A DNA stretch of 64,000 bases from Bernardetia sp. MNP-M8 (GCF_037126285.1 NZ_CP147012.1:3244676-3308675), one strand, 5' to 3'. Counted from the first letter of the stretch, positions 5,621 to 30,727 are shown. A program made the numbers and translations. The notes: a model not told the origin generated them from the sequence alone.

Positions 5621-6049
5621 ATGAAACCCATCAAAATTCTTTTAGTAGAAGACAATCTTGCTGATACCGTATTGATTCAGGAAAGCTTGCTTGAAAGTAA
5701 ACTTAATCTTGATATTGATGCTGTTATTGATGGCGAAAAAGCAATGGAATATCTGTACGAAAGGCTAGAAAATGGCTGTGAAAGACTACCAGATTTAGTT
5801 ATCTTGGATTTGAATATGCCTCGTAAAGATGGAAGAGAAGTATTAAAGGAAATCAAAGAACATGAGGAGCTTTGTCTCATACCTGTTGTGATTATGACTA
5901 CTTCTGAAAATGAAGAAGATGTAAAATTTGCATATAAAAATCATGCAAATAGTTATATTAGTAAGCCTGTTGAAATGGATGAATTTACCAAAATTGTTTC
6001 TTCTATAAATAATTTTTGGCTGACCATAGTAAAACTGCCTAACTCATAG
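5621..6049 (+). CDS. Single-domain response regulator (CheY/Rcp-like receiver)
   Basis: 'ILLVEDN', 'LDLNMP', 'KPV' receiver motifs in a 142-aa protein. Typical phytochrome-associated response regulator. Confidence 0.85.
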   Translation: MKPIKILLVEDNLADTVLIQESLLESKLNLDIDAVIDGEKAMEYLYERLENGCERLPDLVILDLNMPRKDGREVLKEIKEHEELCLIPVVIMTTSENEEDVKFAYKNHANSYISKPVEMDEFTKIVSSINNFWLTIVKLPNS

Positions 6050-6105
6050 ACTAGAACAAAAACACAAAAAGTGACCTTTAATTTTGAGCAATAACCTTTT
6101 ACATC

Positions 6106-7242
6106 ATGAATCGAACTTTGAATAGAATACATATTTTATTGATAGAAGATAATATAGCTGATCAGTTTCTCATGCAAGAAATACTAGAGAAGACTACATT
6201 CCCTGTCAAAAATCTAATTACAGCAGGCACTCTTACTGAGGGTTTAAAAGAATTGAATACAAAAAAAGTAGATTTAGTATTCTTAGATTTGTCATTGCCT
6301 GATAGTCATGGATTAGAAACATGTAAAACAATTACAGATAATTATTATGGAACACCTGTTATTGTTTTGACAGGATTAAATGATGTTCATGTAGGTTTAG
6401 AAGCTATTTCTTTAGGAGCTGCTGATTATATTGTCAAAGGAACATTGGATGAGTTTGGCATGGAAAGAGCGATTCTGTATGCTTTACAACGCAATGAAGC
6501 TCAAAAACAAATGACCAAAACAATGGACATGCTCAGAGGATATAATCAAAAACTAGAACAGTTTGCTCATATTATTTCTCATGACCTTATGTCACCAATT
6601 ATTTCTATAAAGGCATCTATTCAACTGTATGAATTAGAAAAAAAACACAATGATTTGACCCAAACTGCCGAAGAGGTAATGGACGAGGTATATAAAGGAG
6701 TTGACAAATTACACCTTAAATTAAAATCACTTGTCAAAACTCTTGTCGAACAGCAAACTTCGGGTTCTAAATTTGATACAATAGAATTATCTAGTTTTAC
6801 TAGAAAGGTAATTCAAGATATGCGAGAGATTTACAATCAACCCGATATTGACATTGAAGTAGATTTAACAGACGAACAAACTATTTCTTTTGTTCCTGAC
6901 TTAATGTATAGTATTATGCAAAACCTCCTTTCAAATGCTATAAAATATCGCTCTCCGAAACGTACTCCCAAAATAAAAATATGGGCAGAATCTCAAGAAG
7001 AATATTATTGCTTAAATGTAGAAGATAACGGAATAGGAATCGACATGGAAGCCAATAAAAACCGTCTATTTGGTATGTTTCAACGTTTGCACGAAGATAA
7101 TACTGAAATAGAAGGAAGAGGAATCGGATTACATTTAGTTAGAAATATCGTATACAGTAATGGTGGAAAAATAGATGTAAAAAGTACAGTTGATGAAGGA
7201 ACTACTTTTATTGTTTGTTTGCCTAGAGAGCCAAAATTTTAA
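6106..7242 (+). CDS. Hybrid response-regulator receiver + histidine kinase (REC-HisKA-HATPase)
   Basis: N-terminal receiver ('ILLIEDN', 'LDLSLPD'), H-box 'SHDLMSPI', C-terminal 'DNGIGI...GRGIGL'. Confidence 0.85.
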   Translation: MNRTLNRIHILLIEDNIADQFLMQEILEKTTFPVKNLITAGTLTEGLKELNTKKVDLVFLDLSLPDSHGLETCKTITDNYYGTPVIVLTGLNDVHVGLEAISLGAADYIVKGTLDEFGMERAILYALQRNEAQKQMTKTMDMLRGYNQKLEQFAHIISHDLMSPIISIKASIQLYELEKKHNDLTQTAEEVMDEVYKGVDKLHLKLKSLVKTLVEQQTSGSKFDTIELSSFTRKVIQDMREIYNQPDIDIEVDLTDEQTISFVPDLMYSIMQNLLSNAIKYRSPKRTPKIKIWAESQEEYYCLNVEDNGIGIDMEANKNRLFGMFQRLHEDNTEIEGRGIGLHLVRNIVYSNGGKIDVKSTVDEGTTFIVCLPREPKF

Positions 7243-7685
7243 TCTTCTTCAAAAAATTTCTTATAAACAGGACTTCTATAGGCAAATTGCGCCCACATTC
7301 CAGGATAAATTATTGTATCTAAAATTTTAGATGAAGTATAATAATCTATATCATCGATAATTATACACGAATTCTCATCTACTTTTCTTATTCTGTGGTG
7401 ATGTTTCCATTTTTTGAGAGGAAAGGGCAAATCTTTTTCGGCTGTATCTATAAAATAAATTTCACTTTCTGTTTCAGCTTGTTCAACAATATAGGAAGTC
7501 CATTTTGAGCTATAAATTCCAAAATCTAATTCTAGATGTACTTCATCGCCTACCTTACAGCCATCAAAACGATTGAGTTTGAGCTTCGGAAAAGGAGGAC
7601 TAAGTTTTAAAAATAGTTTTTCTGTAAAGCCATTCCATACCTCTTTGGCAGAACGGTTGATTGGAGTTTCAATGGTTAGTTTCAT
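7239..7685 (-). CDS. SRPBCC (START/Bet v1-like, polyketide-cyclase-fold) family protein
   Basis: 148 aa. Pattern resembles COG4276-type ligand-binding SRPBCC proteins. Convergent 4-nt overlap with the upstream kinase. Confidence 0.45.
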   Translation of the reverse strand: MKLTIETPINRSAKEVWNGFTEKLFLKLSPPFPKLKLNRFDGCKVGDEVHLELDFGIYSSKWTSYIVEQAETESEIYFIDTAEKDLPFPLKKWKHHHRIRKVDENSCIIIDDIDYYTSSKILDTIIYPGMWAQFAYRSPVYKKFFEED

Positions 7686-25100: not shown

Positions 25101-25332
25101 AAACCCAACTAGTTCTGAGGTTCGTTTGAAATTAGCAGCCAACTTAAAAGATGCCTTCACACTTACACTTACTGATGGTATTGGTAGAACTCTCATCACT
25201 AAATCTATTTCCAAAGAAGAATCTCAACAAGAAATCCGTTTGGATTTGAGTAAGTATGCTTCGGGAATGTATTTTATCAATGTAGTTACGCCAAGCGAAA
25301 CACTTACTTTCAAAATAGCTAAAGAAGATTAA
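19117..25332 (+). CDS. Giant secreted subtilisin-family (S8) peptidase with many Ig/FN3-like repeats, a MAM-like domain and a T9SS C-terminal sorting domain
   Basis: Catalytic triad contexts 'GIWDGGNV' (Asp), 'HGTHVAGT' (His), 'GTSMAAPGVSG' (Ser). The C-terminal 'VYPNPTSSEVRLK...MYFINVVT' matches the Por/T9SS CTD pattern. 2071 aa. Confidence 0.85.
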   Translation: MKHRYSFSSSKNSIISYQKLVLLLVLGIGMLSSQMQSAIAQSSSPSLRLKSSIEQYTSNTEQFKNDKSSFSDALFGNHYFLVVQFTTLPSYQERQNLKSKGIELIQYLPDLSYTAKINSTISNDKLEALISDFKIHAFVKLSVNQKTQTRLVQGDIPEWAISESNQVELNIIPFDTVNPMLTSMAMTNMGGKLIYESKVSGILTVSVPQTAIMQVASLPWVLWVESLPEPPKEENYYGKSAHRSAILNYGARNLDGSGVNLGIWDGGNVANHLDFSGRRTLVENTSDSDHGTHVAGTMAGAGLLNPRNTGMAPNAQIYSHNFNGDIATEMQNAITNFGIVITQNSYGGGPNCATGDPYGSNNRGQDLLVNNNPQLVHVFSSGNSQSSCAGGFGTTTGKAAKNTITVGALTNNDVITTFSSFGPLEDGRIKPEVSAFGNGVVSTLPSNGYGANSGTSMAAPGVSGTVAQLYQSYRQLNGNADPIASLMKAVLSNNADDLGNTGPDYKYGFGRINGLKAVKALEGNNYAINTVTTAGQNDVTIAVPAGTHELKVMLCWSDPAAAANANPALINNLDLEVLDPTTNTWLPWTLDGANPNNVAIRAVNNVDIIEQVTIPTPATGTYTLRVKGTAVPSGANQQYSLTWTVTEPYIEVTYPSAGVSLTPSATELIQWDMEGVSGTTSVEYSLDNGTTWTVINGAVAANTRRLSWTVPNAMTNEAKIRVSSTTPSLSGTSEAFSIIGVPTGITGQPCSGSAILQWNAVTDADEYIVYQLNTTTGVYTQIGTSATTTFTATGLSGQTWFSIRARNTTTGATSQRSVAFSITPAAGSGIDLELSAIVSPTQGCDLRTAAEAITIRIKNLACSAIPSGTTIPVSYTVNGGTAVNENLVLASDLNGAASLDYTFTTTVDMSAGGSYVLTASANLATDTNGANNTISNHTVQNNPPVTVLPYTEDFENPSPAECWDIINDGAGVGTWQYGTNLGSSFFIIPDVPAGNQYAAANDDACPSPGCGAPYKSWLISPKFDFSSYSQIEMAFRAVFRTDRGEVRISTDRITWTTIHSMASISGVWQDITLDLDAYANEPQVWIAFYYDDLNTWGYGFAVDDVVVREKAIQLVSFLPANNATNVDTNTSLALTFNRVPTIGTGSITLTGGATPIVIPVSATNTTITGNTATVTLPSALATSTTYSVDVPSSTFTANSLGFGGVLPANWQFTTITTSADADSRIVAPTTMPASASISSLATTSASAVEVFSFKVEDLATTDALPTDVTQIDVKQGAANTVTDWTTQLQGAELWSGGTQITATTTITADRIRFTIPAGNASIANGTNTDYTIKVFLNTTGILDEGVLQFQIPTVAHGVQTSNSSSSFASTFPANVVSNTFTLDVVATRLGFSTVPTTATVNSNFAVSVQALDANGNIDRAARTITLLRDGGTGTGVLSATSGLGSRAMINGVFTWSDLQFDEIGEYSIRVNDDGSAFTDLSSLINVVAPTGGGGNTIPSVSAPTQFKAIAIDTSRIDLTWQAATNATGYKLYRLNRLVATLSASTLSYDDSLLNEDTFYGYRLEAFNSVSRKEVATNAVTYPKAPTLISKTDACAGGKGKIVVNSTHTTRSILWYESETATEPIQDDSYTFETQNLTAAKTYYVTANGIRYESQTRLAVTIDVKEIPVAIILGDLVRSTCENTLTLEADTQNASSDLIYTWYSNGVAIQNSNAPTYQATRSGNYSLRITQNECVSMVSSTVQVKVGQVAPAQIEQGSQVSLCEIGELSALEVEGATYQWLFNDTEVGTSSSITVSNSGTYTLRVSKETCTQEAQINVEVISFPTDISITTDKEQFCAGDQSATISVSEVENAMYTLFRNGNRLRIGSENRNFTVNSSGEYHVEISLGTGCVFITDSVSIERIDVPTAHINLIEENMATITSTGTITEVEWNKDGEMLSVSNSLSLALNETGRYRAKVTYDTGCQAITSNSIFYRKPEPVTGVEDEEGNCCTVVYPNPTSSEVRLKLAANLKDAFTLTLTDGIGRTLITKSISKEESQQEIRLDLSKYASGMYFINVVTPSETLTFKIAKED

Positions 25333-25360
25333 TCTAGTTTAATTAGAAAGCAATATAGAA

Positions 25361-25397
25361 AAAAGGCAAATTCTTAATTTGAGAATTTGCCTTTTTT
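25361..25397 (+). terminator. Rho-independent terminator after the S8 peptidase gene
   Basis: aaaaaaggcaaattct taatt tgagaatttgccttttttt hairpin plus T-run. Confidence 0.7.
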
Positions 25398-25753
25398 TGT
25401 CAAAGCTTATTAAAAAATAGAACTATGTGTATTTTAAAAGAGATAAAGTAGTATTGTTTTTTGATTCTGTATGCAAATTTGTGCTAGTCTGGTCTGTGCC
25501 ACCAAACTACTAAAAAGAAAGTGTAGTATTGTAAATAAAATTTGCAAAAAAAAATTACATTAATATATTGTTGAAAATAATTATTATTGAATATTATAAG
25601 TACTTGTAAATTATCAATATTTAAAAAATGTAGTTTGAGTAAAAGTATATATTTCATAAAGATTAACATCATTTAAGTTGTTGAAAATCAATTTATTGTG
25701 TTTTTTGTTGAAAATAATTATATTTGTATTTGGAATTGAAGTTTCTTTTTTGC

Positions 25754-25777
25754 GATATTTACAACATCAAACTTACT
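25754..25777 (+). promoter_or_regulatory. Conserved upstream element GATATTTACARCRTCAAACTTACT. A second copy at 26465..26488 sits the same ~75 nt before peptide 2, each preceded by a TTGAAAATAA...TATTTGGAA box.
   Basis: Two near-identical copies at fixed distance from the peptide start codons. A partial third copy lies at 26341..26360. Confidence 0.45.
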
Positions 25778-25854
25778 CCAAAAACTAATTAAAAATTTTG
25801 AAAAGTGGTTTGAATATTATTTATAAATTATCATTTTTAAACTTATTTTTTATT

Positions 25855-26025
25855 ATGAAGTCTTTGAAAAAGAAATTTGGAAAATTTGTGGTTTCTGAAA
25901 AAGAAATCCAAAAACTGAAAGGTGGTTTTAATTACTGTAATTGTGATCATTATCATAATTGTCCAAGAGGAGCAGCAAATTATATCGAACAACCAACAGG
26001 TTGTCAAGCTGTATGTTGTGGCTAA
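25855..26025 (+). CDS. Double-glycine-leader Cys-rich precursor peptide 1, MKSLKKKFGKFVVSEKEIQKLKGG|FNYCNCDHYHNCPRGAANYIEQPTGCQAVCCG
   Basis: Leader paralogous to two downstream peptides. The GG motif precedes a 6-Cys core. The internal ATG was chosen over the ORF-track start 25798 by paralog alignment. Confidence 0.65.
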   Translation: MKSLKKKFGKFVVSEKEIQKLKGGFNYCNCDHYHNCPRGAANYIEQPTGCQAVCCG

Positions 26026-26061
26026 AATGAGCTCAATATAGTTCAGTTTTGTGTATACAAT

Positions 26062-26092
26062 CACGTCTTACAAAATCTTGTAAGACGTGGTT
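26062..26092 (+). terminator. Terminator hairpin after peptide 1
   Basis: cacgtcttacaa aatc ttgtaagacgtg, a perfect 12-bp stem, followed by ttattt. A second hairpin, aaaaaaggcgtttt ataa aacgccttttttt, lies at 26148..26186. Confidence 0.65.
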
Positions 26093-26204
26093 ATTTAAAG
26101 ATGATTTAAAATTGGCTCTTTATCTGAAACACAATACCACTTCTAGCTAGACAAAAAAGGCGTTTTATAAACGCCTTTTTTTGTCAAAGGTTATTTCAAA
26201 AAAA

Positions 26205-26310
26205 TCAATCAAGCTCAAATTTCAAGTAATATTATATTACTTTTTGCATACTATAAAGTAGAGTCTTTAGCTATTTAGATTAAAAAGAAAGAATTATCAT
26301 AAATTATAAC
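26205..26310 (+). pseudogene. Remnant of the 5' part of a second C39-like/VKOR gene, homologous to 27160..27260
   Basis: About 100 nt at ~75% identity to the region encoding DAQTLSDLTTLLAHYKIESLAVQIGKEH of the 27083 gene. The reading frame is interrupted by a stop. Confidence 0.55.
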
Positions 26311-26562
26311 CTTTGAAAAATAGCAATATGTTGGGTTTTAATTACAACATCAAATACTTTGTGTTTTGAAAAAATAACATTTTGTAATTTACTGTTATTC
26401 AGAAAGTTATATCTTTTTTGAAAATAAATGTAATTTTTATTTGGAAATATGATTTATTTTTATTGATATTTACAGCGTCAAACTTACTTAGTAAGTATTA
26501 GAAATATATAAGTAAGTAATCTTGATAAATTATTTTAATTATACCTATTAAACTCAATTTTT

Positions 26563-26715
26563 ATGAAATCTTTGAAAAAGAAATTTGGAAAATTTGCTAT
26601 CTCTCAAGAAAAAGCAAATAAAGTAAACGGTGGTGAGCCACCATATCCGTGTAAGAATAAGTATTTTCCTAATCCAAATGATCCTTTTGAGTGTGATCCA
26701 CTTAGAGGAAATTAA
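26563..26715 (+). CDS. Double-glycine-leader precursor peptide 2, MKSLKKKFGKFAISQEKANKVNGG|EPPYPCKNKYFPNPNDPFECDPLRGN
   Basis: 50-aa ORF below the ORF-track cut-off. The leader and 5' flank are nearly identical to peptide 3. 2-Cys Pro-rich core. Confidence 0.6.
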   Translation: MKSLKKKFGKFAISQEKANKVNGGEPPYPCKNKYFPNPNDPFECDPLRGN

Positions 26716-26779
26716 ATTCATTTATTATTGATTCATTTTGTATCAATATTTTTTAATAAAACATCTGAACTCAATTTTT

Positions 26780-26965
26780 ATGAAATCTTTGAAAAAGAAA
26801 TTTGGAAAATTTGCTATCTCTCAAAAACAGAGCAAACAAATTACAGGGGGTTTTGATAATTGTGAAGTAGTTTTTTGGTGTCAAGGTAAAACGTATCCTA
26901 CAAAATCACAATGTGAGTCAGGGTGTGATGATTTTTGCTATGGACAATATGTATTTCCGTGCTAG
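26780..26965 (+). CDS. Double-glycine-leader Cys-rich precursor peptide 3, MKSLKKKFGKFAISQKQSKQITGG|FDNCEVVFWCQGKTYPTKSQCESGCDDFCYGQYVFPC
   Basis: Paralogous leader. 6-Cys core. Own terminator at 26987..27038 (atagcgatagaa...ttctatcgctat + T-run). Confidence 0.65.
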   Translation: MKSLKKKFGKFAISQKQSKQITGGFDNCEVVFWCQGKTYPTKSQCESGCDDFCYGQYVFPC

Positions 26966-27082
26966 TATAAGTAATTAATATAAAAAATAGCGATAGAATA
27001 AACTTTGGTATTGCCAAACTTCTATCGCTATCTTTTTTGTAGTTTTGCAAGCAAAAAAAACAATATTTAAAGCAATTGTAAT

Positions 27083-28741
27083 ATGAAAACTATTGTAAGT
27101 ATCCTATTAGATAAATTTGAAGTTTCTTACACTATCACTTATTTACAAAAACTGACAGCAAAATATAATGATGCTCAAACATTAAGTGATCTTACTACAC
27201 TTTTAGCACACTATAAAATAGAGTCTTTAGCTGTTCAGATTGGAAAAGAACATTTATCAGAAATTCCTTTGCCTGCTATTGTTTTGGCTTCTCATAATGA
27301 TGAAAATGGAAGAACACACACTGATTATTCTATTTTAGACGAAGTTAGAGACAATGAAGTAGTCTTGATTAATGTGAATTCAGAGAAACAGATAGTTGAA
27401 ATAGAAGAATTTGAAAAATCATGGACAGGTTATACACTGTTATTAGATAAAAATGAAAATGCAGCAGAACCAAATTACTCTGCTCATAAAAAAGCACAAA
27501 AGAAACAACAGTTTTTTGACACTATAAAAAATACCATTCAATTTTTAGTGGGTATTTCTTTTTTATTTTTAGTTGGAAAAACTTTTTTTGACACGAATCA
27601 ACAAGTCACAAAGTCTATTCTTGAAATTTCCTTTTATATTTTACATACTATAGGATTTGTAATTAGTGCTATCTTACTTTCTGGAGAAATTTTTAAAAAT
27701 AATGCAGTTTTCAAAAAAGCTTGTACTGCCTTCGGAAAATCATCTTCATGTGCTGATACAAAACAAGAAAATACAAGTAAAATAGATTCAATCAAAAAAT
27801 GGTTTACCTTTTCAGAATTGGGTGTTTATTATTTCTTTGGGGCATTTTTATTTTTACTGATTGGTAATTTTAATTCTTTAACATTCGTTTTTCAGAGTTT
27901 GATTTCTGTTTTGGGGATTTTTGCAGTCATTGCATCTTTATATTATCAAAAGTTTATTCTTAAAGAATGGTGTTCGCTTTGTGTTTCTATAATGGCAGTT
28001 TTGTTTGTAGAATCTTTGGTAGGGGGAGTATATTTATTTAGCTTTCAAGATGAAATTTCATCTTTTACTTTTACTTTGTATTCTGTTTTTTCAATTTTAG
28101 TAATAGCTGTTTTTTCATTCCTGTTGCCTATATTTATTTGGAATATTTTAAAACCAGTTCTTGAAAAATATAACTCTTCTAATAACGAAACTAAGAATCT
28201 ACGTTCTTTTAAGTATGATTATGAGGTTTTCAAAACACTTCTTCATCAAAATAAAAAAGTAGATATAAGCGAAGTTCCAACCCATTTTGTAGAAGGAAAT
28301 ACTATTTCAGCCGAACTAGAGGAAGAAGAAGAGGAGAATAAAGTTTCTTTAGTTGTCATTAGTCGCCCTACTTGTCCACCTTGTATTAGTGCAAAGAAAG
28401 ATTTACAAAAATTGAGAGAAGATTTTGGCAATTATTTTACTACAACTATGTGCCATTTGACTCCCAATCAAACAAGTGAAGATTACAAGCAGATTTCAGA
28501 AATGTTATCCCATCTTCCGACATTTTATTCTGATAAAGAAAAAGAAAGTATCATTTCACAACATTATACTTGGATAAATCAGACAGGAATTACTTTTACA
28601 CCTGCTTTTATTGTAAATGGGTATTTATTACCAGAAAAATATACAGTTACTGATTTAGAGTATTTTTTAGTGCATTTGGCTAGTGAAATGGATGATTCAG
28701 AAGAAAATCCAGAAGAAGAACTATCTTTGCAAGAAAACTAA
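27083..28741 (+). CDS. Fusion protein with an N-terminal peptidase-C39-like domain lacking the catalytic Cys, a VKOR-like 5-TM core (loop Cys pair CTAFGKSSSC, TM 'CSLC') and a C-terminal thioredoxin-like domain ('TCPPC')
   Basis: 'IPLPAIVLASHND' and 'EEFEKSWTGYTLLLD' match the C39 C-terminal half but no Cys occurs in the first ~140 aa. Multi-TM middle with CxxC. 'VVISRPTCPPCISAKK' Trx motif. Confidence 0.7.
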   Translation: MKTIVSILLDKFEVSYTITYLQKLTAKYNDAQTLSDLTTLLAHYKIESLAVQIGKEHLSEIPLPAIVLASHNDENGRTHTDYSILDEVRDNEVVLINVNSEKQIVEIEEFEKSWTGYTLLLDKNENAAEPNYSAHKKAQKKQQFFDTIKNTIQFLVGISFLFLVGKTFFDTNQQVTKSILEISFYILHTIGFVISAILLSGEIFKNNAVFKKACTAFGKSSSCADTKQENTSKIDSIKKWFTFSELGVYYFFGAFLFLLIGNFNSLTFVFQSLISVLGIFAVIASLYYQKFILKEWCSLCVSIMAVLFVESLVGGVYLFSFQDEISSFTFTLYSVFSILVIAVFSFLLPIFIWNILKPVLEKYNSSNNETKNLRSFKYDYEVFKTLLHQNKKVDISEVPTHFVEGNTISAELEEEEEENKVSLVVISRPTCPPCISAKKDLQKLREDFGNYFTTTMCHLTPNQTSEDYKQISEMLSHLPTFYSDKEKESIISQHYTWINQTGITFTPAFIVNGYLLPEKYTVTDLEYFLVHLASEMDDSEENPEEELSLQEN

Positions 28742-28806
28742 TTATCAAAATAGTTTAAAGTTGTACCTAATTAGTTTCTACTACTAAGAATAATGTAAAT
28801 TTTGTA

Positions 28807-30138
28807 ATGGAAGATAATATAGAAAGAGAAGAGGTTTTTCGCTCTTATTCAGAAGAAACACAAGAATTATTGACAAGTCCACAAGGCTTTTTTATGCGTT
28901 CAGGTATTACAATCATCTTTGGTGTTTTGCTTCTAATGCTTGTCGTTTCTCATTTTATACGCTACCCTGAATTATCGACTTCAGAAGTAACACTATATGC
29001 AAATCAAGCAAAAGCAAGTTTGTTTCCAAAGATTAATAGCCGTATTATTTTTATAAATGCAGAACATAGTCAAGAGGTAAAAGAAAATGAGCTTTTATTA
29101 GTCTTGGAAAGCACAACAGATTGGAAAGAAGCCAAAAAGTTAGAAGATTATTTAGACACACTTTCTAGTCAAAATTCAGTATTTGAAAGTGTAGATTTTT
29201 TTCAAGAAAATGAAATTCCTCTTTTTACAAATTTGGGAAATTTACAATTAGATTACGAAAGACTAAAAAATAATATTTTAGATTATCAGTTATTTTCTAA
29301 AACTAACTCGCATGCTCAAAAACAAGCTGCTATTCGTTCAGAAATAGAAATTCAAAATTCGTTAAGAGTTATTTTACAAGAAAAATATGAACTTCAAGAA
29401 AGAGACTATGAGTTGAGCAAACAAAAATATATTACCGATTCATTATTGTATAAAAGTGAAGCAATTGCCAAACAAGAATTTTTACAAACAAAGAGCGCAT
29501 TTCTAAACAAAGAAAGTAGTTTTTTGCAAAATAAAGAAGCAAATCTAAATGCCCAAATGCGAGTTAGTCAGCTCAATCAACAGCTTGTAGAAGTTTCTAT
29601 TGCTTATCAAGAGCAAGCATTTAAGTATAAGCAACAATTACGAACTAGTTTTGCAACTCTAAAGAAAATGTTAGAAGATTGGAAAACCTCTTATTTGATT
29701 ATTAGTCCGATAGAAGGTAAAGTTAATTTCTTTAATCCTCTTAATTTGTATCAATCAGTTGGTATGGATAAAGAGGTTATTTCTGTTATTCCTCAAAAAA
29801 ATGCTATTTATGCCTATACAAAAGTAGACTCAAAACATATTTCTAAGCTCAAGGAGGGAAAAGAAGCCAATAAAGCAAAAATAAAATTAGAAGCCTATCC
29901 TTTTGCTCGTTATGGTTGGATAGAAGCAGAAGTTGCACAGATAAGCCTTGCGCCACAAGAAAATAAATATTCTGTCCAACTAAAACTAGACAATGGTTTA
30001 CAAACCAACAGAAAGGTCGAAGTAGATTTAGATTCTAAGAATGAAATTTATGGAACAGTAGAAATAGTTCTAGAGGAAAGAAGTCTACTAGATAAATTTT
30101 TGGAACAGACAGTCTATTCAGTTGAAGCCTTTGAATAA
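28807..30138 (+). CDS. HlyD-family membrane fusion protein (type I secretion / bacteriocin export adaptor)
   Basis: Cytoplasmic N-terminus, single TM 'IIFGVLLLMLVVSHFI', long coiled-coil region, C-terminal beta domain. Typical HlyD layout. Confidence 0.7.
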   Translation: MEDNIEREEVFRSYSEETQELLTSPQGFFMRSGITIIFGVLLLMLVVSHFIRYPELSTSEVTLYANQAKASLFPKINSRIIFINAEHSQEVKENELLLVLESTTDWKEAKKLEDYLDTLSSQNSVFESVDFFQENEIPLFTNLGNLQLDYERLKNNILDYQLFSKTNSHAQKQAAIRSEIEIQNSLRVILQEKYELQERDYELSKQKYITDSLLYKSEAIAKQEFLQTKSAFLNKESSFLQNKEANLNAQMRVSQLNQQLVEVSIAYQEQAFKYKQQLRTSFATLKKMLEDWKTSYLIISPIEGKVNFFNPLNLYQSVGMDKEVISVIPQKNAIYAYTKVDSKHISKLKEGKEANKAKIKLEAYPFARYGWIEAEVAQISLAPQENKYSVQLKLDNGLQTNRKVEVDLDSKNEIYGTVEIVLEERSLLDKFLEQTVYSVEAFE

Positions 30139-30268: not shown

Positions 30269-30727
30269 TTAATTAGTCATATATTGACTCAAAATTGGGT
30301 TATCTCCCAAAATAGCGATTCCGACCATTAAAATTACGAGTACAACTCCCATTACAGTCATTGCACTTTTAAATTTGAATTCTTTCTTCATTACGTATGC
30401 AAAACCTGTAATCATTCCAACTGCGCCACCTAAAAGCGCACTACCAATAGCTAAAACAGCTATTCTACGAGCTAAGTTTACATCTGGATTATCCATAACA
30501 GAGTGCATAACAAAAACTTCTAAACCCACAGCGACCAAAAATACAACCATGCTTGTTAACATAACACGCATAATAAATGAAGGTGCTTGACCTGCTGGTC
30601 GGGATTGTACTTCATCAGAATCCAATTGATTAAGTTTTGCTTGTGCCGTTTCTTCAGATTCAAATTTAGAATCTCTGTCCATTGAGGTATAAGAAGTATC
30701 TTCTTGATTTGCTTGATAAGTTGCCAT
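30269..30727 (-). CDS. Hypothetical membrane protein (acidic N-terminus, 3 TM helices)
   Basis: ORF with clear hydrophobic segments. No recognised domain. Confidence 0.45.
   Translation of the reverse strand: MATYQANQEDTSYTSMDRDSKFESEETAQAKLNQLDSDEVQSRPAGQAPSFIMRVMLTSMVVFLVAVGLEVFVMHSVMDNPDVNLARRIAVLAIGSALLGGAVGMITGFAYVMKKEFKFKSAMTVMGVVLVILMVGIAILGDNPILSQYMTN

Follow-up and report, generated by a model that had tools for sequence, protein, structure and literature searches.

The stretch between the first two of three small peptide genes in Bernardetia sp. MNP-M8 very probably contains the decayed 5′ stub of an older gene for a C39-like/VKOR/thioredoxin-like enzyme, of a sequence type (type A) that differs from that of the intact gene now standing downstream. 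The reading we favor, at a probability of roughly 0.55–0.6, is that an incoming block of peptide and enzyme genes displaced the older gene in one step. The window analyzed is a 64,000-nucleotide stretch of this genome, in which the elements concerned follow one another in the order peptide gene 1, stub, promoter block, peptide gene 2, peptide gene 3, intact (resident) enzyme gene and HlyD-type gene (Table 1). It was compared with orthologous loci, some of them found by a profile-based contig scan, namely those of B. litoralis (L001), Bernardetia sp. ABR2-2B (L003) and Bernardetia sp. OM2101 (L004/L010), and with MAGs and metagenome contigs (L005–L009 and L011–L014).

Table 1. Features of the peptide locus in the window and, where a locus number is given, in the genomes compared.
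Feature	Position	Strand	Description
Peptide gene 1	25855..26025	+	ORF; 56-aa precursor, leader MKSLKKKFGKF...KLKGG, six-Cys core
Hairpin directly 3′ of peptide gene 1	26059..26092	+	MFE −19.8 kcal/mol, z −5.7; same stem in L003
Whole relic	26124..26315	+	first 183–190 nt (codons 1–62) of a type A C39-like/VKOR/thioredoxin gene; 3 stops, ~7 indels
Window stub, alternative right ends	26124-26305/26315		gene nt 1–183/190; ATG now CTG
Portion first noticed	26199..26315	+	still alignable to resident gene 27160-27271; 77%, z 22.7
Terminator-like hairpin	26150..26185		A-tract, GGCGTTT/AAACGCC stem, T7 tract; MFE −19.1 kcal/mol, z −5.95
Promoter/5′-UTR block of peptide gene 2	26366..26562	+	paralogous to 25704-25851 (73%); 73.5–78% to L007 7531-7729/7800
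Peptide gene 2	26563..26715	+	ORF, 50 aa; orthologue L009 23-175
Peptide gene 3	26780..26965	+	ORF, 61 aa, six Cys; 65 nt after peptide gene 2; without its own promoter block
Resident intact enzyme gene	27083..28741	+	type B 5′ end; 552 aa; C39-like + VKOR + thioredoxin-like
HlyD-type periplasmic adaptor gene	28807..30138	+	TIGR01843 1.1e-19, below its cutoff
Upstream-block copies, window	25704-25851, 26366-26562
Upstream-block copy, L007	7531-7729
Upstream-block copy, L003	7585-7733
Upstream-block copy, L001	3121-3219
L004/L010 stub	6711-6777		gene nt 1–66; ATG intact
L007 stub	7338-7456		gene nt −42 to +80; ATG now GTG
L011 stub	3232-3265		gene nt 1–34

A sequence-only reading of the window had placed at 26205-26310 about 100 nt that align at roughly 75% identity with the intact enzyme gene and carry an in-frame stop, and had taken them for a pseudogene fragment of a second C39-like/VKOR gene. 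Local alignment of 26030-26560 with 26966-28800 paired 26199-26315 with 27160-27271, with 92 of 119 columns identical (77%), a score of 94, and stops as well as frameshifts in the fragment. The same alignment against 300 dinucleotide-preserving shuffles scored 28.6 ± 2.9 (maximum 40), giving z = 22.7, so the match is indeed better than that of shuffled sequence. The part of the resident gene concerned encodes ...NDAQTLSDLTTLLAHYKIESLAVQIGKEHLSEIPLP. A repeat search returned the ungapped pair 26200-26305 and 27160-27265 (75%), and BLASTN gave 76.6% over 107 nt (E ~1e-16) and no further copy of the fragment within the 64-kb window.

The match reported was real, but the relic proved to be about twice as long, since comparison with orthologous loci showed homology beginning some 75 nt further to the left, at 26124. 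Its right end lies at 26305 (gene nt 183), or at 26315 (gene nt 190) if the CCTTTG that follows a 4-nt insertion is counted. Against nt 6–183 of the enzyme gene of ABR2-2B, 181 nt were 77.9% identical (E 7e-34 to 1e-34). Global alignment to this gene gave 77.7% identity with 11 gap columns, compared with 81–91% and 0–2 gap columns for intact type A genes over the same segment. The former start codon at 26124-26126 has changed from ATG to CTG; TAG at 26276-26278 stands where the gene has the Gln codon CAG (...LAVQIG...), TAA at 26300-26302 where it has the Glu codon GAA, and a third stop is found at 26148-26150. The coding capacity of the stub is gone, and the earlier description of the fragment as a non-coding relic of a second gene of this kind is borne out. 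Outside the resident gene, the old gene gave no nucleotide or protein match beyond about its nt 190.

The counterpart of this region is uninterrupted in ABR2-2B. Peptide gene 1 has its orthologue at L003 7734-7910 (MKSLKKKFGRFAVSEKEMQKLKGGFNHCNCNYYYNCPKGGANYIQEPTGCQAVCCGSN), with 84.5% nucleotide identity, all six Cys kept, and 11 synonymous and 11 non-synonymous codon differences. The orthologue is followed by the same hairpin and spacer as in the window and then by an intact enzyme gene. Window positions 26026-26305 are collinear over 285 nt (77%) with L003 7905-8183, which run from the 3′ end of the peptide gene through hairpin and spacer to nt 183 of the intact enzyme gene.

Peptides 1–3 have nearly identical leaders (MKSLKKKFGKF...GG) and unrelated Cys-containing cores, and none of the precursors matched a Pfam or NCBIfam model. 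A block of about 150–200 nt with an invariant TATTTG lies upstream of most peptide genes compared across the loci (peptide gene 3 being an exception), and in the window, L007 and L003 copies the motif ATATTTACAnCnTCAAAC(TTAC) stands 97–100 nt ahead of the ATG. The block could be a common promoter with a long 5′ UTR or a regulator site. The stretch separating the stub from the block of peptide gene 2 holds a partial extra copy of the motif (TAATTACAACATCAAA, 26339-26354). Upstream of the enzyme gene in L003, L005, L001 and L011 we also observed other peptide genes, with the leader ...FAVSTEKMAKVKGG...; between them and the C39-like/VKOR gene stand one to four large AhpC-TSA/redoxin/thioredoxin-like genes.

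The HlyD-type gene follows the enzyme gene in every locus for which downstream gene calls were listed. Upstream contexts vary widely among genomes, and the downstream genes of the window (including nifU, a sigma factor gene and HlyIII) recur in L006, L007 and L008. A divergent gene for a C39-peptidase ABC exporter stands beside the peptide genes in L004 (3801-6029), L005 (2428-4656) and L006 (3457-5670). No such exporter was present among the nine long ORFs scanned out of about forty in the 64-kb window, and that of MNP-M8 is presumably encoded elsewhere in the genome.

The resident enzyme is 100% identical to P0001, a protein of Bernardetia sp. MNP-M8. Its N-terminus matched PF03412 (Peptidase_C39) with an E value of 9.6e-15 and 55 bits (cutoff 22) over residues 5–125, covering model positions 18–132 only, and residues 1–213 contain no Cys. 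A profile match that begins at position 18 and the lack of Cys in this segment mark it as a C39-like domain without the nucleophile Cys, which would not be a protease. A PDB profile search for a C39 active site returned only spurious transmembrane matches. Bacterial VKOR-thioredoxin fusion oxidoreductases form disulfides in a DsbB-like manner. The resident enzyme resembles them in a VKOR match above the cutoff (PF07884, 1.5e-7, 32 bits, cutoff 27.5), a membrane CxxC (C297-x-x-C300), the upstream loop cysteines C214/C223 and a C-terminal C431-P-P-C434, the two CxxC motifs being invariant in 12 homologues (P0001–P0012), and a corresponding activity is predicted. It differs from them in the extra N-terminal C39-like domain without the catalytic Cys and in thioredoxin Pfam scores below the cutoffs (PF13098 at 24.9 bits, cutoff 27). 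The absence of the catalytic Cys from this C39-like domain suggests that it recognizes leader peptides.

Bacteroidetocin (class IIf) clusters of Bacteroidales combine a four-Cys peptide with a GG leader, a dedicated thiol oxidoreductase and a C39-peptidase ABC exporter (PMC6671954). By analogy with them, the enzyme most likely recognizes the common leader and introduces disulfides. The Bernardetia loci likewise belong to Bacteroidota, have short Cys-rich precursors with GG leaders and a dedicated, predicted disulfide-forming enzyme beside the peptide genes, and in L004, L005 and L006 an adjacent C39 ABC exporter gene. They differ in that the enzyme is a three-part fusion with a HlyD-type adaptor gene next to it, and the likeness drawn here is one of cluster content; stubs are not described in the bacteroidetocin paper. 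A full-text literature search for VKOR, C39 and bacteriocin together found no paper, and close homologues in the protein search were confined to Bernardetia/Flexibacter-like Cytophagales. A plasmid collection gave no match.

Two of the enzyme genes from MAGs are themselves interrupted. In L011, from an uncultured Cytophagales, an otherwise full-length gene at 6001-7641 carries an in-frame TAG (LAV*IGKE) at the very Gln codon that the window stub also has as TAG; one transition turns CAG into TAG, and the TAG in L011 may mark a recent pseudogene, a sequencing error or a coincidence. The enzyme matches in L012 (2447-4070) fall in two frames (residues 1–406 and 420–541), a sign of a frameshift or of faulty assembly of that MAG.

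Two sequence types can be told apart among the 5′ ends of the enzyme genes. L003, L005, L006, L011 and L012–L014 have type A (MKNTITLLLDKLGVSYTPFYLSKL...), and the resident gene of the window, L001, L004, L007 and L009 have type B (MKTIVSILLDKLEVSYT...). The first 75 nt of the stub are type A. The resident gene matches the distal stub only, because its own 5′ end is of the other type. Over the distal stub, nucleotide identity was 84.6% to L001 (E 1e-27), 80.4% to L003 and 76.6% to the resident gene, and in tblastn the identity of the stub was 59% with the protein of L003 (E 2.6e-10) and 43% with that of the resident gene (E 5.5e-4). At the columns that separate the types, the stub agreed with A at 11, with B at 5 and with neither at 5 (3:0:0 under a strict criterion), the distinction being drawn mainly from the first 75 nt and the types being less distinct in nt 78–183. 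The resident gene, in its first 180 nt, and peptide gene 2 are both nearest to L009, where the enzyme gene most closely related to the resident one stands downstream of the orthologue of peptide gene 2.

With the stub of type A and closer to the genes of other genomes (84.6% to L001 and 77.9–80.4% to L003 vs. 76.6% to the resident gene; A:B sites 11:5), we rejected its origin as a recent in-situ copy of the resident gene. The view of the fragment as a duplicate of its intact neighbor is not supported. As a separate observation, the B. litoralis gene (L001 8001-8190) is type B for about its first 75 nt and then has a pattern nearly identical to that of the type A gene of L003, which suggests a past crossover within the gene near nt 75.

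Three further loci contain 5′ stubs of the enzyme gene (Table 1). All four begin at the gene start, are type A and have a peptide gene downstream; a peptide-promoter block comes after the stub in the window and directly after it in L004 and L007. No homology links their left flanks: in the window these are an L003-like peptide gene and hairpin, in L007 a 3′ remnant of a redoxin gene (L005 and L011 have such a gene too), and in L011 the end of another gene. The right flanks differ among the window, L004 and L007. The simplest reading of these flanks is that the stubs go back to independent events. That the window and L007 stubs descend from one ancestral event was considered and rejected on their non-homologous left flanks, later flank replacement being possible. 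The resident gene of L011 is type A like its stub.

We propose that the older type A gene stood directly after peptide gene 1, as it still does in ABR2-2B, and that a block consisting of a promoter, peptide genes 2 and 3 and the type B enzyme gene, probably with downstream DNA, recombined into the locus. The segment 26366-26562 is then the start of the newer block. The right join would have formed in homologous sequence and the left one, near nt 185 of the type A gene, illegitimately, that is, by homology-facilitated illegitimate recombination, or sequential displacement. The rest of the old enzyme gene would have been lost in the joining, leaving the stub as a neutral, decaying scar. Peptide gene 1 has a promoter of its own and the common GG leader; it would have stayed upstream, where the new enzyme could serve it in trans, and the peptide array would have grown by one module. 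The comparisons show the homology, extent and decay of the relic, its collinearity with ABR2-2B, its type and its recurrence in other loci; which way the event ran and by what mechanism, termination in vivo and the maturation of peptide 1 in trans are what we infer from them.

Divergence along the locus was measured against the syntenic L007/L008. Nucleotide identity was 79% for the enzyme gene and 82–85% for the HlyD gene, compared with 86–95% for the flanking NifU, sigma factor, HlyIII, acetyltransferase and SSF genes; lower values downstream were those of a 152-aa membrane protein (71%) and a 153-aa ORF (~80%). A divergence of the enzyme and HlyD genes above that of most flanks is consistent with allele exchange at the locus. 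The gene for the 152-aa membrane protein (30269-30727, − strand) lies just downstream of the HlyD-like gene, and its low identity may mean that it evolves fast as a partner of the locus, perhaps as an immunity candidate. On the right, a sliding-window mosaic of the resident gene was a noisy patchwork with no clear crossover breakpoint. On the left, the sequence of L009, the closest relative of the incoming block, starts 22 nt upstream of its first peptide gene. The CCTTTG at 26310-26315 could be junction microhomology, though it is offset by the 4-nt insertion. An inverted repeat that brackets the fragment first noticed (26180-26194 and 26306-26320) was put down to chance: its perfect core is 10 nt, and by a rough hand calculation about 0.4 such repeats would arise by chance in this AT-rich spacer.

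Part of the stub has become a hairpin. Positions 26150-26185 read GACAAAAAAGGCGTTTTATAAACGCCTTTTTTTGTC, and the corresponding type A coding sequence (nt 33–58) forms a modest hairpin, GGCGT...ACGCC followed by TTTTTATTT, of −11.7 to −13.4 kcal/mol (−11.7 in L003). When the same number of random substitutions and indels was applied to four type A sequences (3000 runs each), the mean MFE was about −5.4 kcal/mol and −19.1 was reached in none of the 12,000, on the assumption that the ancestor resembled present type A alleles. Since the simulation never reached this value, the changes are non-random as to structure; the hairpin derives from the weaker coding one and has been strengthened. Its strengthening suggests that a terminator or insulator was selected for between the units of peptide gene 1 and peptide genes 2/3; the predicted termination would probably insulate peptide gene 1 from the next transcription unit. 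A consensus terminator scan did not list 26150-26185, and we suspect that it missed the hairpin since the A-tract pairs with the T-tract and consumes the expected tail.

A short sequence upstream of peptide gene 1 (25388-25418) repeats 26173-26203 of the stub, which comprise the 3′ arm of the hairpin and its flank (29 of 31 positions identical, z 7.2, 0 of 500 shuffles). It adjoins the terminator hairpin (25359-25397, −21.4 kcal/mol) of an upstream gene for a 2071-aa protein and has the derived states of the stub (T7 and not TTTTTATTT, AAAG and not AAAA, TTAT and not TTAC). The repeat could go back to an earlier scar or to a short patch of conversion; a second full stub was rejected, as there is no homology on either side (z 0.9, −0.5 and −1.1).

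The strength of the hairpin, far above that of the coding ancestor and unreached in simulation, also favors a reading in which the stretch was kept for a function of its own, as a terminator, insulator or regulatory RNA, and resembles the gene only incidentally. That all four stubs begin at the gene start, and that those of the window, L004 and L007 keep the hairpin segment (degraded in L007, z −1.7), fits such a function as well. This retention is partly a matter of ascertainment, however, because short stubs are hard to detect, and the 34-nt stub of L011 ends before or within the hairpin. The 120 nt past the hairpin are plainly decayed, and Rfam returned only sub-threshold hairpin matches on 25300-27100, none above the gathering score. 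Collinear homology far above chance points to origin as a gene relic whatever the present use, and we consider this reading as a whole doubtful.

A second alternative is that two complete tandem modules once stood here, peptide gene 1 with enzyme A (and perhaps HlyD) and peptide genes 2/3 with enzyme B and HlyD, and that most of A and what followed it was later deleted. The end state would be the one seen, the stub and the resident gene differ in allele type as expected, and the locus is clearly dynamic. Yet two intact enzyme genes were present in none of 11 distinct loci within the fetched flanks (5–8 kb), so that the intact second copy looked for in related loci did not appear; the protein search likewise gave one homologue per named genome. 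The four stubs come with no intermediates, and the scenario invokes two events where one suffices. We regard it as unlikely. The sequence-only reading had likewise inferred repeated peptide-plus-enzyme modules, one of which lost its enzyme gene; the gene order in ABR2-2B supports the part in which the relic belonged to the module of peptide gene 1, but there is no evidence of a stage at which two intact enzyme genes stood side by side. Displacement in one step does without it, and two complete modules are therefore not required.

Still less probable, in our view, is an in-situ tandem duplication of the promoter, a peptide gene, the spacer and the first ~190 nt of the enzyme gene, followed by divergence and perhaps conversion of the resident 5′ end. 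The stub is followed by a paralogous promoter block and leader (73%), which is the architecture expected, but such blocks are paralogous in peptide genes across the loci, and these flanks therefore do not discriminate. The L011 stub, being of the same type as its own resident gene, fits local duplication equally well, and the repeat at 25388-25418 with the derived states of the stub hints at local copying. The main prediction, that the stub should be nearest to the resident gene, failed: the resident gene is among the least similar to the stub of the genes compared, and the two are of different types. Peptide gene 1, spacer and stub correspond to an uninterrupted stretch in ABR2-2B, peptide gene 2 and the resident 5′ end match L009, and the cores of peptides 1 and 2 are unrelated. 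Of the ongoing modular duplication and decay that had been read from the fragment, turnover of the locus is upheld, with 5′ stubs in three other loci, and in-situ duplication is the less likely part. Finally, a chance resemblance of AT-rich sequences, in a region that is very AT-rich and only ~77% identical to the resident gene, is refuted by the z score of 22.7, by E values of 1e-27 (L001) and 1e-34 (L003) and by the collinearity through spacer and peptide gene.

Displacement by an incoming block has a close parallel in the T6SS clusters of Vibrio cholerae, where orphan immunity genes and effector 3′ remnants record sequential displacement, and where orphan modules of Rhs and CDI loci are cited for comparison (PMC5361080). 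In both cases a module with a conserved and a variable part appears to be joined through homology on one side and illegitimately on the other, the older variable gene is kept, and the truncated older conserved gene is left as a scar. The nearest alleles to the remnants are those of other strains and not the resident copy, the arrays would grow stepwise, and the pattern recurs across strains. Unlike in T6SS arrays, the conserved gene here is a predicted peptide-maturation enzyme and not a toxin or structural gene, the relic is an upstream 5′ stub whereas there a displaced 3′ end lies downstream, and what is retained are not immunity genes but genes for small secreted-peptide precursors, each with its own promoter; the mechanism proposed here is read from sequence.

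For annotation, 26124-26315 should be labeled a pseudogene fragment, and not intergenic DNA or a small ORF. The scar is of an ordinary, already known kind and is moderately informative on the evolution of the locus. It also offers a small example of a pseudogene piece that has been reshaped into a terminator-like hairpin. A broader scheme, which we put forward tentatively as one possibility, is that Bernardetia arrays grow by repeated one-sided capture of foreign blocks (promoter, one or more GG-leader peptide genes and the C39-like/VKOR/thioredoxin-like enzyme gene). Each capture would cut the resident enzyme gene down to a 5′ stub, the stubs would be recruited as insulating terminators, and the older peptide genes would remain functional, served by the new enzyme because every leader fits it. 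If true, this would be a displacement-driven diversification of disulfide-rich secreted peptides around a leader-guided oxidase, which we did not find described in the literature searched. The stub would date and order events in MNP-M8, with peptide gene 1 belonging to the older module and peptide genes 2 and 3 having come with the present enzyme gene. For this hypervariable, antimicrobial-peptide-like locus, the four stubs together indicate that diversity in the arrays comes from the capture and displacement of modules more than from duplication on the spot, by the same logic as in Rhs, CDI and T6SS toxin loci.
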